Both the position numbers and the translations under genes were made by a program. A stretch of 64,000 bases of DNA from Mustelus asterias (Eukaryota), in contig NC_135810.1 in the NCBI RefSeq assembly GCF_964213995.1, positions 81,034,001 to 81,098,000 of the forward strand, in the 5' to 3' direction. The stretch's first letter is position 1. The number at the start of each line of letters is the position of its first letter. Shown here in pieces: positions 3,020 to 41,825 of the stretch. Below the pieces are notes generated by a model, which did no database searches, was not told the origin of the DNA, and saw only the letters and a list, made by a program, of their open reading frames with translations.

Positions 3020-3950
3020 TCCTTATTGAGGCAGGATATACTTACAATGGAGGCAGTTTATAGAGGGTTGATCAGGTTAATTCCTAGGATGAAGGGGTTG
3101 TCATATGAGGAACAATTGAGCAGACATAGTTTATACTCATTGGAATTTAGGAGAATGAGAGGTGATCTTATTGAAACTTTAAGATTCTGAGGGGGTAAAT
3201 GTGAAGAGGACATTCCTCTCCTGGGAGAATCTAGATCTACCAGGCTTTGTTTTAAAATAAGGGGCTGCCCATTTAAGTAAGAAGTCTCACAACACCAGGT
3301 TAAAGTCCAACATGTTTATTTGGTAGCAAATGCCACTAGCTTTTGGAGCGCTGCTCCTTCGTCAGGTGAGTGGGAGACCTGTTCACAAACAGAGCATATA
3401 AAGACACAAACTCAATTTACCGAAAGATGAATAATGGTTGGAATGTGAGTCTTTACAGCTAATCAAGTCTTAAAGGTACAGACAATGTGAGTAGAGAGAG
3501 CATTAAGCACAGGTTAAAGAGATGTGTATTGTCTCCAGACAGGACAGTTAATGAGATTTTGCAAGTCCAGGCAAGTCGTGGGGGTTACAGATAGTGTTAC
3601 AGAAAGCTAGTGGCGTTTGCTACCAAATAAACCTGTTGGACTTTAACCTGGTGTTGTGAGACTTCTTACTGTGTTTACCCCAGTCCAACGCCGGCATCTC
3701 CACATCATGGCTGTCCATTTAGTACAGGGATGAGGGGCATGGATTTTTGGAATTCTTTATATCAGAGAACTGTGGATGCTGAGTCATTGAATGTATTTGA
3801 GGCTGAGATAGATAGATTTTTGAATCAAAGATTTTGGAGAGTATACCAGAAAATGGAGTTAAGGCCAAGATCAGCTCAGCTGTGATCGGAATTGCAGTTA
3901 GCTCAAGGGGCGGTGTGACCTACTCCATTTCCTAATTCCTTATGTTCTTA
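3020..3950 (+). mobile_element. CR1-like LINE 3' part, interrupted by a Penelope insertion
   Basis: ORF 2969-3190 has RLIPRMKGLSYEEQLSRHSLYSLEFRRMRGDLIET; the element resumes after 3709. Confidence 0.8.
3278..3708. mobile_element. Penelope-like element terminal (pLTR) fragments in inverted arrangement
   Basis: 3278-3600 is the reverse complement of the 3' end of the PLE at 31250-31520; 3601-3708 is the same terminus on +; flanked by an imperfect duplication GGCTG(C/T)CCATTTA. Confidence 0.8.
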
Positions 3951-4654
3951 CAGCTTCTAGTTGGAGTCATCAGCATGGTTGCTGTTGCCTCTCAATTGCC
4001 ATAATTTTCTTCAAAGCATCAAATAATGCAAGCACTGTGGACTGCTGCATAATAAAACTATCTTGTGTGCTCCCTGGGTAATGGATATTAACATGCAGGA
4101 TCACATTTCTGTGGTCTGACACCACATATTTAATTTTGAGCAGTATGTGTCTGAACTTCCAATTTACATTGCTGCCAGACGTGCTTCCCTATCAGCAGGG
4201 TGGACTCGGAAAATTACCCGCTCAGTCTGAGACAAATTACTCCCTTTCTGTAGAATTAACTGAGGTTATTTTAAGTTCTAAGTAGAGTATGAAATGTGAA
4301 ACAGCTCCTGAATGTGAATGAAGTTATGAATGATAGAATAGCACCATATATACTCAGCACTTTGTGCCCTGATTTGCATGGTCAAGTAAGATATCACTGT
4401 TGCTTCAGTAGAACAGAGCTCAAGATTACCAAATCTCAGCCAATCGAAATGAGGGCAAATATTTTGGTTGGCCTGAATAGACCCCTGATCATTCCGAATC
4501 ATCTTTTATAAGCTGGACTTCCTCCTCCAATAACATAGCTTTGCTTATCATTGTCCAATGATATTCTGCCCAATTCAGCCAAACTGCACTCCACTCTATT
4601 AAGCTAATGGGCCTATAATAACTCAAGGAAGATTAAACCTCAGACAGAAGAGTG

Positions 4655-5215: not shown

Positions 5216-5903
5216 TCTTCATTTCTTTTCTATCTGGATATGTTGACCAATAAGAAGCAATTTTCATTTGATCTTTCTTTGGGTTGGGATAGAAAAAAAT
5301 GTTACAGTTCTTAATTGAACTACTCACAAAAAAAATCATCAATAAATTTGGATGAGTCAATGATGATTTAAATAAATAATTACAAACAGAAATTGCTGAA
5401 AATAGACCAGGATTGGGGAAAATCTTTTCTCAGGACTATGTTAATACTTCAATAGTGTGAGAGAGCATCAACAGATGGTGGTAACTTTGGGATATATAAC
5501 AATAAGAAGCATGATGGCATATGAAAGAATGCATTCAAAGACACCATTCTGCATTTTTTAATTATATAATCAGTTGCAAACCGAGAATATGGCAGGGATG
5601 GGTGCACACTGAAGAGAAACATTCCAACCTGACACAAGACATTATAGGATAATAGAAAGGGCTGAATCTTAACTGAACAGCATACTAAACCACTTTGGTT
5701 AAATCAAGTCTGGATATTTTAGATTTAGACAAGTTTGTAATTTTCTTGTAGTTGGAGACTGATGTTAGGAATTGAATATGTGCTTATGCTGCCACATGGT
5801 GTTCCAATAGACACAAGGTTAAGAATTCCCAGATACTGGGGGGGGGGGCCTAAATCCAATCTCAATGCCAAATTAGCCAAATTGCAAATCCTTTCAAACA
5901 TAT

Positions 5904-36730: not shown

Positions 36731-37068
36731 GCATAGTGGCACAATGGTTAGCACTGTTGCTTCACAGTGCCAGAAACCCGGGTTCGATTCCAGACACAGG
36801 TCTGTGTGGAGTTTGCACGTTCTCCCTGTGTCTGGTGGGTTTTCCTCTGGGTGCTCCAGTTTCCTACCACAGTCTAAAGGTGTGCAGGTTAGGTGGATTG
36901 GCCAGGCTAAATTGCCTTTTAGTGTCCAAAGATAGGTTAAGTGGATTAGACATGGTAAATACATGGGTTTACGGGCATATGGCCTGGGTAAGATGCTCTT
37001 TTGGAGAGTTGGTGCAGACTTGCTGAGCCAAATGGTCTCCTTCTGCAATGTAGGTATTCTATTCTATG
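36731..37068 (+). mobile_element. HE1-type SINE
   Basis: Head, core and tail. Confidence 0.85.
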
Positions 37069-38196
37069 GATGTTTTACTTTCCGGTATCTTATAACTGGG
37101 CACAGGGGATCAACCAAGCAACGTGGGCTGCATTCTGAAGATGTCCAGGAATGTAACATATGTCCATATAAATCAAATCCCATGTGATGAATAGCAAAGC
37201 TGTTGGCTACCCACACCCATGCCAGCAGTTCACATTTATACTTGGCGTATAAACCGTGTCCAAGTTTGAAAGGATTTTTTGAGGCTTCATTGGTCGACCT
37301 TTGCAATGACAGCTCCATTATCTGGTCATTATCACATTGTTATTTGAGAGAGCTGTCTGTACGCATTCTCCACATTGCAACAGAGACTATTCAAAATTTA
37401 CTGATTTGGCTGTAGATTACTCTGAATCTTCCTGAGATCATAAAAGGCAATATATAAATACAATTCTTTCTTATCTTTCTGTTATTCAACTCTAAGCACC
37501 CTTCTGCACAACATTCATTGTATGATGTTCCAGAAGTTTAACTTGGGAGCAGTTCTGGCTTTAAGTTAGTTACAGAAGAGTTGTGTGCAAGCATCTGAAA
37601 TTGGGATGACCACATGGTGAATGCAGCTCTCTATTCCTGGTGAGTACCAGTTGTATATCCGAACTTGTGGTCTGATATTAAGAAGAGACCAGTTCCAGTT
37701 GGTTTTGAGGTGGATATATCTGAATTCTCGATGGTTTTTAAATTGATAAGCAATCTGGGTTGGTAATGATCGAGTGAAAACCAAGCTCACCAACTGATGT
37801 GTGAAATACAGTATTCAAATCTGGAACAAGACAGTATGATGGAGCACAAATTCACCCACATGTTCATCCCTCTGATTTATTGCACTTAGTAGTTGCAGTT
37901 ACAGTTTCAAGGATGCTGACAACCTTTCATTACATGAAGCTTTCAGCCTGCAGAGTATCTGTTGACAGTTTATTTAACGTGGGGGACACTGCCACTGATG
38001 CTGATCCTGTCCACACACAATCTCCGGCAGAAATCATTGGTAGAGATAATCAGAAAGGAGCAATTTTAACACCCCATCATCACACCAGGTGCGATTAGCT
38101 AGCTCCACAGAGATGTGAAGCCTTTCTGCTTTAGAACCATAGAATCCCTACAGTGCAAAAAGAGGCTATTTAGACCAACACGCCTGCACCCACAAA

Positions 38197-38299
38197 TTTT
38201 TTACACTGTTTATGACTTTTGGATCTGTAATTTTGCAATGTTTTATTGGAGAGTTTTTTTTTGTGTGAATAAAGTATATTTTTGAAATAAATAAAAAAA
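38197..38299 (+). mobile_element. Short LINE 3' tail (T-rich, AATAAA, poly-A), probably Tx1-type
   Basis: ...GTGAATAAAGTATATTTTTGAAATAAATAAAAAAA. Confidence 0.5.
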
Positions 38300-38322
38300 T
38301 ACCAGGTCCGCTTCTCGGCCTT

Positions 38323-39109
38323 GCAAGTCAAAGCCTCCCTCTACATGGATGACGTGGCTGTTTTCTGCTCGGACCCCTCGTCTGTTCGCAGGCTTCTTCG
38401 AGTCTGTGAGCAGTTCGAGCTGGCCTCGGGGGCCAAAGTCAACCAGGGTAAGAGTGAGGCCATGTTCTTTGGGTACTGGCCTGACACATCCTTTGTCCCC
38501 TTCACCATTAGGGTAGGCTACCTCAAGGTGCTGGGGATATGGTTCGGAGCGGCAGGGGCATGCGCCAAAAACTGGGAAGAGCGCATCGCCAAAGCCAGAC
38601 AAAAATTGGGATTGTGGGAGCAACGCTCCCTCTCCATCACTGGGAAGAACCTTGTGATCCGATGCGAGGTCCTGTCCGTGTTGTTGTACGTGGCGCAGGT
38701 GTGGCCTCTCCCCAAGTCCTGCGCAGCAGCAGTGACCCGGGCCATCTTCAAGCTCATCTGGAGATCAAAGATGGATCGTGTCCGGAGGGAGGCGATGCAC
38801 AAATCTCCAGAGAACGGAGGGAAAAACGTTCCCAACGCCGCCCTCATCCTGATGGCCACCTTTGTGTGCGGCTGCATCAAGCTGCGTGTAGATCCTCGGT
38901 ACACTAACAGCAAGTGCCACTATTTTTTGAGGTTCTACCTGTCCCAAGTGTTGCGGAGGATGCGTCTGGCCACATTGCCGCGGAACGCTCCAAGTAGTTG
39001 GACCGTACCGCAGCACCTGTCCTTCGTGGAGAAATTCTTCCGGAAACACACCTTTGACCACATGGCTATCAAGCAGTGGTCAGCACGTAATGTCCCAAAA
39101 AACTACATC
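38323..39109 (+). mobile_element. Tx1-clade (Keno-like) non-LTR retrotransposon RT fragment
   Basis: QVKASLYMDDVAVF..FELASGAKVNQGKS..YLKVLGIWF..LSITGKNLVI..GGKNVPN, uninterrupted for ~260 aa; flanked by U2 sequence. Confidence 0.85.
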
Positions 39110-39428
39110 GGCTAAGATCAAGTGTAGTATGGATTGGATGCTGCACTTGGTTGAGGTCATTGGGTTACATTGAAGCTTCATATGTTTCATATGAAGCAAT
39201 TGTTAAAAGCGGCATCTCGGCCTTTTGGCTAAGATGCAAATGAGCTCAAGCCTTGGTGGAGGAACCTCCCCCTTCTCCAATCAGCTTGGCTCATGTAGAT
39301 CAGGCCCAGGACAGGGTGATTTGGTCGCTCGCCCTGTCTTGTCAGCCTGGATCTGAAATGTCTCAACTTGTTGAGACTTTGAATTGGATTTGATTTGATT
39401 GAATTGGAAAAGTAACAAAAAAAAAAAA
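39110..39428 (+). mobile_element. U2 snRNA-headed SINE-like unit A
   Basis: GGCTAAGATCAAGTGTAGTAT (U2 nt 19-39), second U2 fragment at 39215, hairpin-rich body, A tail. Confidence 0.75.
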
Positions 39429-39759
39429 TCTCGGCCTTTTGGCTAAGATCAAGTGTAGTATGGATTGGATGCTGCACTTGGTTGAGGTCATTAGGTTACA
39501 CTGAAGCTTCATATGTTTCATATGAAGCAATTGTTAAAAGCGGCATCTCGGCCTTTTGGCTAAGATGCAAATGAGCTCAAGTCTTGGAGGAGGTATTGCT
39601 TTCCCTCCTCCAATCAGCTTGGCTCATGTAGATCAGGCCCAGGACAGGGTAATTTGGTCGCTTGCCCTGTCTTGCCAGCCTGGATCGGAAATGTCTCAAC
39701 TTGTTGAGACTCTGACTTGGACTTGATTTTATTGAATTGGAAAAGTATTTTAAAAAAAA
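39429..39759 (+). mobile_element. U2 snRNA-headed SINE-like unit B
   Basis: TCTCGGCCTTTTGGCTAAGATCAAGTGTAGTAT (U2 nt 7-39), second U2 fragment at 39546, same body as unit A, A tail. Confidence 0.8.
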
Positions 39760-40154
39760 TACCAGGTCCTATCCCTATAACCCCACATATTTACCCTCCC
39801 AATCCCCCTGAAACTAAGGGTCAATTTACCATGGTCAATCACCTAACCCGCACATCTTTTGAATGTGGGGGGAAACTGGAGCACCCGAAGGAAACCCATG
39901 CAGACACGGGGGGAAAATGCAAACTTCACTCAGACAATCACCCGAGGCCAAAATTGAGCCCGGGTCCCTGTGCCACGATGCTGCCATTTTAGTTCCACAT
40001 TGCTGACCCATTTATTATCTGAGCCTCTGGAGGATGTGGCATCTTCAGAAATACTTTAATATAAAAGGAAAATTAACTTAATAGGTCCCGTTAACAGATG
40101 TATAGTACCAGAAAAGGGCAAACATCCAACTGCAACTGTCAAGTTCAGTCATTT

Positions 40155-40525: not shown

Positions 40526-41536
40526 TTGAACTTTTATTTATTTATTAGTCACAAGTAGGCTTATATTAACACTGCAATTAAGTTACTGTGAGAATCATCA
40601 GAGGATGAACAATTTTGCTCTCCATGAGCTGGTGGCTGTACTCAGAGAAGCCCGGTACGAAAAATAGTCAACAAAAAACAAATTGGCAGATATTTGGCAT
40701 CTCAACCTCCTCTGGGAATGATTTTCGGATGAGACGCATGCTTCTGATTAACAACTGGTTATAAAATACCATTGGAACAAGGCCCATGATCATCTAACTA
40801 GTCCAAATGCACTGGAGTCTGTTGAGCTAATAAACTTGAAAGGTAGCACAGCTGAAACAAACTGAAAGTCAGCCAAGAGAAGAAAAACAAAAGATCAGAC
40901 AATTAGAAGTAAAACTAATTGATAAAAAAGAGGGATTGAAACCAGAGCACTGCATCGAAGTGCTGACTGAGCTTCTATTTCGAAGTTGAAAGAATGAGTT
41001 TTGGAAAGTTAGCAATTGAACAGAAAGATTGTGAATAATTGAAAATTCACGTCGGATCGGGGTGAAATTTCATTTTCAGCATGCAGGTGACAAATCTGGT
41101 GGAGCAGATCACTCAGCCACTATGGAGCCAGCCTCCATTCCACTGATGTTTGAAGAATCCTATATAGAAACACAATTAGGCCTTCATGAAGATTGTCTTT
41201 AAAAACCTTTGTTGGTTTCTCAGCATTCAGCATTCAGGTCCTTGGAACAATTCTTGCAAGACCACTCTCAAACTCAGAGTAATATTTATTTCCTGATTTA
41301 TCCACAGGGTGTGGGAGACATTTGTCTCATTTGTTGTCTTGCTCTAGCTGTTCTGAGAGGGTGATAGGACATTCTTCTCGAACAGATTGTTGATACATTG
41401 GGACTGTTTTTTACATTGGAGTGGTTTGCTAGAACAGTTCAGAGAGTCACCAATAGAGAAGGGGAGTGGAGTCACACTTAGGTTGAAGCAGGAATAGTTG
41501 GCAGGTTCGCCTCTTTGAGAGGCATGAGTTAACCAG

Positions 41537-41825
41537 CATGGTGGCACAGTGGTTAGCACCACTGCCTCACAGCGCCAGATACCTGGGTTCGATTCACGGC
41601 TTGGGTTACGGCAGAGACTACACATTCTCCCCGTGTCTGTATGGGTTTCCTCCGGGTACTCCGGTTTCCTCCCACAGTCCAAAGACGTGCTGGTTAGGTA
41701 CATTGGCCATGCTAAATTCTCCCTCAGTGTACCTGAACAGGCACCGGAGAGTGGCGACTTGGAGATTTTCACAGTAACTTCATTGCAGCGTTAACGTACA
41801 CCTCCTTGTGACACTAATAAATAAA
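41537..41825 (+). mobile_element. HE1-related SINE with a different 3' tail
   Basis: HE1-like head and core, then tail ...TTTTCACAGTAACTTCATTGCAG...TTGTGACACTAATAAATAAA; the same tail is seen in reverse at ~40530-40595. Confidence 0.75.

Follow-up and report, generated by a model that had tools for sequence, protein, structure and literature searches.

Keno is a U2-targeting retrotransposon of the Tx1 clade, credited to Kojima and Fujiwara 2004 in PMC4494074, PMC4640811 and PMC6136364. For the crocodilian SINEU families, PMC4494074 describes recurrent head additions, tandem copies around a duplication and Tx1 partners that cluster with Keno; it also reports that no SINEU was found outside crocodilians and leaves SINEU transcription open. 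Tripartite chimeras of snRNA and LINE pieces have also been described and are attributed, in PMC4476161, to double switching or to two events. Our literature search, covering titles and abstract openings outside Repbase and most subscription papers, found no report of a U2-headed SINE or of Keno in sharks.

The shark locus described here resembles each of these systems in part. Its SINE has in common with SINEU-1/2/3 a U2-derived head, an internal second U2 piece, a poly(A) tail and recurrent head additions. As for SINEU-1/2/3 and Tx1-Mar, tandem copies sandwich a duplication, and the target is common with a Keno-related Tx1 bearing 5' snRNA sequence. The shared target is the U2 gene here, whereas it is Mariner there; the comparison with SINEU is by its published description. 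Like the chimeras of PMC4476161, the locus joins snRNA, LINE and retroposon pieces in one orientation between duplications; in most of those chimeras U6 is fused to the 3' end of a LINE, whereas the LINE piece here is internal, tailless and 5' of the SINE.

Organization of the locus

The window, i.e. the whole 64,000-nt stretch that was analysed (G000:C10:81034001-81098000 in the 3.68-Gb assembly), holds a ~1.5-kb insert made of two U2-headed SINE copies and a piece of a Keno-type retrotransposon (Table 1). An earlier note had described an identical 10-mer at the two ends (38300-38309 and 39760-39769), enclosing U2 nt 3-16 (38309-38322), Tx1 sequence, U2 nt 19-39 and then two SINE units. The repeat is exact, and our alignments confirm this order, with a 14-nt filler between the Tx1 piece (773 nt) and unit 1, which runs from U2 nt 19-39 on, while unit 2 runs from U2 nt 7-39 on. 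The match between the outer 10-mers continues 7 nt into the A-runs, and the window contains no copies of the 10-mer besides these two. The C at 38309 can be assigned either to the outer duplication or to U2 nt 3.

Two features were absent from the earlier note: a Keno tail at 38197-38299 and an inner repeat of U2 nt 7-16, exact at 38313-38322 and 39429-39438, which brackets the RT piece and unit 1. The right copy of this inner repeat forms the first 10 nt of unit 2. The two junctions of the RT piece, with U2 and with the filler, each gave one match in the genome, so that both are single-copy.

Table 1. Features of the stack and its host element (positions in the window, known from the assembly)
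Feature	Position	Strand	Evidence
3' part of older host SINE (presumably HE1-like), interrupted by the stack	38135..38196	-	105 host copies with both flanks in line
5'-truncated 3' tail of Keno-type Tx1 family and A-run	38197..38299	+	family positions 5225-5324, 98%
Outer target duplication, left copy; host sequence, with 7 A's further upstream	38300..38309	+	exact repeat
U2 nt 3-16; last 10 nt (38313-38322) the likely left copy of the inner duplication	38309..38322	+	U2 match
Internal Keno-type Tx1 ORF2 fragment, YMDD motif into post-RT region	38323..39095	+	family nt 3684-4456; P0001 residues 615-871
14-nt filler	39096..39109	+	no source found
SINE unit 1: head of U2 nt 19-39, then a body enclosing U2 nt 4-27 (39212-39235) and an A tail	39110..39428	+	nearest copy 98.2%
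SINE unit 2: head of U2 nt 7-39, then a body enclosing U2 nt 4-27 (39543-39566) and an A tail	39429..39759	+	nearest copy 97.9%
Outer target duplication, right copy	39760..39769	+	exact repeat
5' part of host SINE	39760..39983	-	alignment with other host copies; inverted-repeat matches

The interrupted host element is a SINE that we take to be HE1-like. Since 105 host copies (fetched loci and the window) keep both stack flanks in line, the outer 10-mer is host sequence; the modal projected gap between the flanks is 6 nt, found in 37 of the 105. Further copies of this host SINE flank the locus on the + strand (window 36731-36990 and 41536-41790). Elsewhere (L228/L078, G000:C2:79.09 Mb), another Keno copy stops at the same position of the HE1-like SINE as the stack, possibly a weak secondary target. 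The Keno tail on the left of the stack is 100% identical to a U2-array copy, and no duplication was seen on its left; it is a separate insertion at the same nick as the outer duplication.

Near-palindromic hairpin arms can be read from the letters of both SINE units (39175-39197, 39360-39380, 39506-39528 and 39690-39710). The Rfam scan gave one U2 match, under the gathering score, and its SNORD94 and BTH_s39 matches are due to chance.

A Keno-type Tx1 family in U2 genes

The Tx1 family from which the piece derives has a 5.3-kb body and 286 exact tail matches in the genome, and it is young, its copies being 97-99% alike. The ORF2 protein of the family, P0001, carries Exo_endo_phos (an APE-type endonuclease), RVT_1 and zf-RVT domains, and the family's ORF1 is ZCCHC3-like/CCHC. 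This combination of APE-type endonuclease, RT and zinc-binding domains in ORF2 with a CCHC ORF1 resembles Keno, as does the site of insertion: family copies stop at U2 nt 38/39, and behind them comes the 3' target sequence that PMC6136364 gives for Keno, a site also given in PMC4640811. The full-length element that the earlier note had proposed to look for was found, seated in U2 genes at the Keno site. Full-length copies open with U2 nt 1-35 or part of it. They differ from Keno in keeping this head even outside U2 genes (L049, L124, L226 and L277); one such copy (L124:2433-7768, - strand) has stop-to-stop frames of 467 and 1063 codons and is followed by three SINE units.

An A-run followed by U2 nt 39 onward occurs at 33 junctions in the genome. 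Among the 20 that were viewed, the tail before U2 is Keno-type at 8, that of the SINE at 7, and related or other at 5. The 8 Keno-type tails represent 5 separate loci and 3 units of one 8-kb array (15 matches), and insertion at U2 nt 38/39 with the U2 3' flank was seen at L095, L096, L098, L099, L100 and in the 8-kb array. Another locus (L121) reads as U2 5' part, full Keno body and U2 3' part, and one unit of a 1,833-bp U2 array holds SINE-Keno-SINE between the U2 halves. Filled and empty U2 units have 300 of 300 upstream bases in common, and the insertions at the U2 site lie in real U2 genes. With 108 intact U2 sites in 3.7 Gb, the number of random insertions expected there is far below 1 by an arithmetic estimate. 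Related Tx1 and SINE-like tails also end at U2 nt 38/39 (L086, L087, L088, L090 and L094), so more than one family uses this site.

At G000:C24:44.815-44.94 Mb (L115-L118), an 8,035-bp unit is repeated 15 times. Each repeat combines one U2 gene that is intact, a fragment of U2, and a U2 gene filled by a full-length Keno-type element; in some units this element has a 350-bp insert. The main U2 array, of 1,833-bp units, lies at G000:C24:42.985-43.065 Mb (L044), where irregular spacings suggest several filled units. A second cluster at G000:C21:28.04-28.08 Mb (L120-L123) carries a variant U2 that is 84-89% identical to the array gene and is preceded by a flank unlike that of the array; the cluster is heavily occupied by Keno and SINE and adjoins a satellite resembling the SINE tail.

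Most family copies are dispersed, with ~6 independent U2-site loci against 286 exact tails. U2 nt 39 onward followed none of 30 profiled tails and none of 79 sampled loci (12 common to both sets). The partner family is thus Keno-type with relaxed targeting and differs in this from a strictly U2-specific element. Outside U2, the target consensus amounts to a weak pyrimidine bias at +1 only (25 of 30 Keno and 73 of 93 SINE tails), which was partly forced by A-stripping in the script. Target duplications at other Keno copies measure 7-25 nt, and internally deleted copies exist (L228, L239 and L248). Evidence from outside the window supports the description of the piece as Keno-like, in that the family ends at U2 nt 38/39 in U2 genes.

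A U2-headed SINE with the same target

The SINE is ~335 nt long, with 366 exact head-junction matches and 2,354 body-word matches in the genome. With a U2-derived head, a length below 500 nt, a poly(A) tail, target duplications and many copies, it has the characters of a SINEU-type element. Ninety SINE loci, taken from the first 100 listed and lying on contigs C1-C6, were examined: 19 are multi-unit and 4 contain Keno sequence, but none has Keno between two head pieces. Five of the 90 begin at U2 nt 19 without a LINE piece, so this is an ordinary truncation point. In the stacked arrays L019, L024, L026 and L185, most members are set apart by the site's duplication, and where a tail meets a head, at least 3 nt of spacer intervene in 41 of 48 junctions. 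An antisense Keno tail lies inside a SINE at L069, near the U2 nt 39 boundary.

Both the SINE and the Keno-type family insert at U2 nt 38/39, and mixed arrays of the two were seen. The earlier note had taken the window locus as a physical link between the SINE and a candidate mobilising enzyme. A partnership in which the Keno-type family would move the SINE is indeed backed strongly by the common U2 target and the mixed arrays elsewhere in the genome, but the window locus is not the strong evidence for it.

The Tx1 fragment and its junctions

The fragment begins just ahead of YMDD. What had been described as ~790 bp of uninterrupted Tx1 RT consists of 773 nt of Tx1, open over 257 codons with no stop, plus the 14-nt filler. 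The designation as RT holds for the ~67 residues that match the end of Pfam RVT_1 (profile 145-194 of 205), whereas the remainder lies past the RT core. As an internal fragment, unlike Keno itself, covering the end of RVT_1 only, the piece cannot encode an enzyme, and the feature in the window is a dead one-off chimera.

A first genome search with the RT piece listed 374 candidates, and the 40 that were scored were 99-100% identical to it; over the whole fragment, nucleotide identity to 9 copies is 97.4-98.6%. The piece carries 6 alleles absent from 21 other copies. Its translation is 96% identical to P0001, which comes from family copy L041, and the two group with support of 100/100 in an RT tree of 30 rows, 28 of them hand-picked from 120 homologues listed. 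In this tree the fragment falls among proteins from amphibians and others without a name (99/96), with teleost and lancelet sequences nearby, and no row is tied to a named Keno, Kibi, Koshi or Tx1L. A reference look-up for Keno proteins returned BAD04856.1 and BAC82621.1, which bear no element names, and a literature search with these accessions gave unrelated matches.

No source was found for the filler: its longest exact matches are 8 nt in the Keno body, 6 nt in the SINE or U2 and 10 nt across the window. An origin from reverse U2 was rejected, the 6-nt match being at chance level, and splicing was rejected as the source of the U2/RT join since the flanks are not GT/AG. Nor is the insert a member of a multi-copy composite family, given that each junction is single-copy and that 291 other loci, some of them overlapping, contain no second case. 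Among these 291 loci, the join of Keno nt 4456, filler and U2 nt 19 has no parallel, and Keno is joined to a following SINE only at L185, by an ordinary insertion beyond which the Keno sequence continues.

Origin of the insert

The insert is probably the product of stacking: judged from the sequence, four retroposed pieces would have accumulated in the older SINE through at least three insertions by the Keno-type enzyme, with unit 2 arriving first. Entry of unit 2 into the host SINE would have produced the outer duplication. A second insertion would then have entered through a nick at U2 nt 6/7 in the head of unit 2, which left U2 nt 7-16 in two copies, and the U2 piece ahead of the RT would belong to the head of unit 2, not to that of unit 1. 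The inner insert would comprise the RT fragment, the filler and the 5'-truncated unit 1. We tentatively suppose, at somewhat less than an even chance and as the simplest account of the join, that the reverse transcriptase copied SINE RNA as far as U2 nt 19 and then, after an untemplated stretch of 14 bases, continued on Keno mRNA; a rather unlikely variant is that a 5'-truncated Keno inserted first and lost its last 868 nt as unit 1 inserted. The 100-nt Keno tail at the left nick may have come before or after the other steps. The order could not be read from divergence, with nearest-copy identities (tail 100%, RT 98.6%, units 98.2% and 97.9%) too close to one another.

Several observations bear on such nesting. 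Units 1 and 2 are not separated by the outer duplication, unlike most members of the stacked arrays L019, L024, L026 and L185, which have theirs in between. Stacking is common, as the multi-unit SINE loci (19 of 90) show, and so do the Keno tails with a U2 head behind them (21 of 102). The inner 10-nt duplication falls within the size range of the duplications at other Keno copies, although an exact repeat of this kind could also be the overlap of two U2 heads. Poly(A) directly precedes U2 nt 7 at 8 places in the genome, including the window locus; the search pattern fixed nt 7 and cannot show a preference over neighbouring positions. Among the 7 other places, L145 and L146 are clear insertions into the internal U2 repeat of the SINE, L148 has a 16-nt duplication of U2 nt 7-22, L144 and L150 fit insertion at U2 nt 6/7, L149 is without an upstream U2 piece, and L143 is no tandem case. 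In an unbiased sample, 7 junctions had a short spacer, and not one of them starts at nt 7. At four loci (L056, L249, L283 and L286) where U2 sequence precedes a truncated Keno, this sequence is a duplication that extends into the downstream head. True 5' additions of U2 were found at L232 (1 of 77 truncated Keno copies) and L190 (1 of 90 SINE loci); the other flagged upstream U2 matches at Keno copies are 8-9 nt long and chance-like, or lie at the nt 38-49 site. Because insertions at U2 nt 6/7 and duplications running into downstream heads occur elsewhere, nesting is better precedented than a return switch.

Nesting has its own costs. The loss of U2 nt 17-18 only would be a coincidence, and no intermediate allele supporting nesting was seen. 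Units 1 and 2 differ at 19 positions, 17 of them beyond offset 120, and have in common an allele, at 39202 and 39533, that is present at 8 places genome-wide, against 2,354 for the usual allele. Independent insertions would therefore need an additional gene conversion. Among adjacent pairs elsewhere, 33 in all, only 2 have a rare allele in common, and these belong to a single tandem-duplicated array; for non-adjacent pairs the figure is 154 of 15,665. The six other carriers of the allele of units 1 and 2 are single and of mixed types, and no dimer source was found in the assembly. Conversion, a common source or polishing may account for the shared allele. A reciprocal swap of the 5' halves of the units, suggested by the haplotypes, gave no gain (11 vs 11 mismatches).

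The earlier note proposed a single event that placed the RT inside one U2 head. We regard this as unlikely; U2 nt 3-16 is accounted for at least as well by the head of unit 2 with a 10-nt inner target duplication. Under the single event, a SINE dimer or two SINE RNAs would be copied in one insertion, with an exit in the stem-loop I loop (U2 nt 19), taking up 773 nt of Keno mRNA and returning to the head at nt 16. Such an origin would agree with the one outer duplication, with the near-continuity from nt 16 to 19, in which U2 nt 17-18 alone are missing, and with the rare allele of both units; 5' U2 additions exist at L190 and L232, PMC4494074 describes 26 such 5' extensions on SINEU-2, and tripartite chimeras from double switching or two events are reported in PMC4476161. 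Against this, two or three switches are required, the assembly has no dimer with the allele in both units, the 291 other loci offer no second case, and with 19 differences between the units the shared allele would still need conversion or a common source.

The remaining readings are improbable even when taken jointly. It is very unlikely that a source Keno with a SINE at family position 4456 gave a read-through RNA that was retroposed and 5'-truncated: insertion of a SINE into a Keno body, accompanied by a duplication, is seen at L185, but a SINE tail before Keno position 4456 has no match in the assembly, which is possibly incomplete, and the filler junction is single-copy. Slightly less probable still is break repair, in which a piece of Keno cDNA or RNA would have filled a DNA break within the head of a SINE dimer already in place, with no priming by an endonuclease. 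Such a repair would suit the lack of poly(A) on the fragment, the loss of 2 nt, the 14-nt filler and, provided that U2 nt 7-16 is left out of account, the lack of a duplication belonging to the fragment. But a random break would have to strike just 2 nt of the head, and it would not explain why the outer duplication is missing between the units. An assembly chimera is just as improbable, as two exact duplications flank the pieces, the host element reads through across the stack, 6 alleles of the RT piece occur in none of 21 other copies and the locus sits on a 128-Mb contig, even if both single-copy junctions are known from assembly sequence alone and polishing could have carried the shared allele from one repeat to its neighbour.

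Implications

Nested or switched retrocopies are already known, and the underlying SINE/Keno system matters more than the window locus. In PMC4494074, the transcription of promoterless U2-headed SINEs is left open, and the partner is inferred only from a shared transposon target. In this shark, a young family and a SINE sit in real U2 genes with intact upstream flanks, so promoter borrowing and trans-mobilisation become directly testable. If the insert did arise in a single event, it would record that SINE RNA and Keno mRNA had been together in one particle, and would depict shark parasites that are both transcribed from U2 gene promoters and whose own U2 heads serve as new targets. Under the stacking of separate insertions that we prefer, a second nick site at U2 nt 6/7, which every SINE copy would carry twice, is likely; if real, it would help to account for the repeated head additions and for the stacked arrays with no need of template switching.
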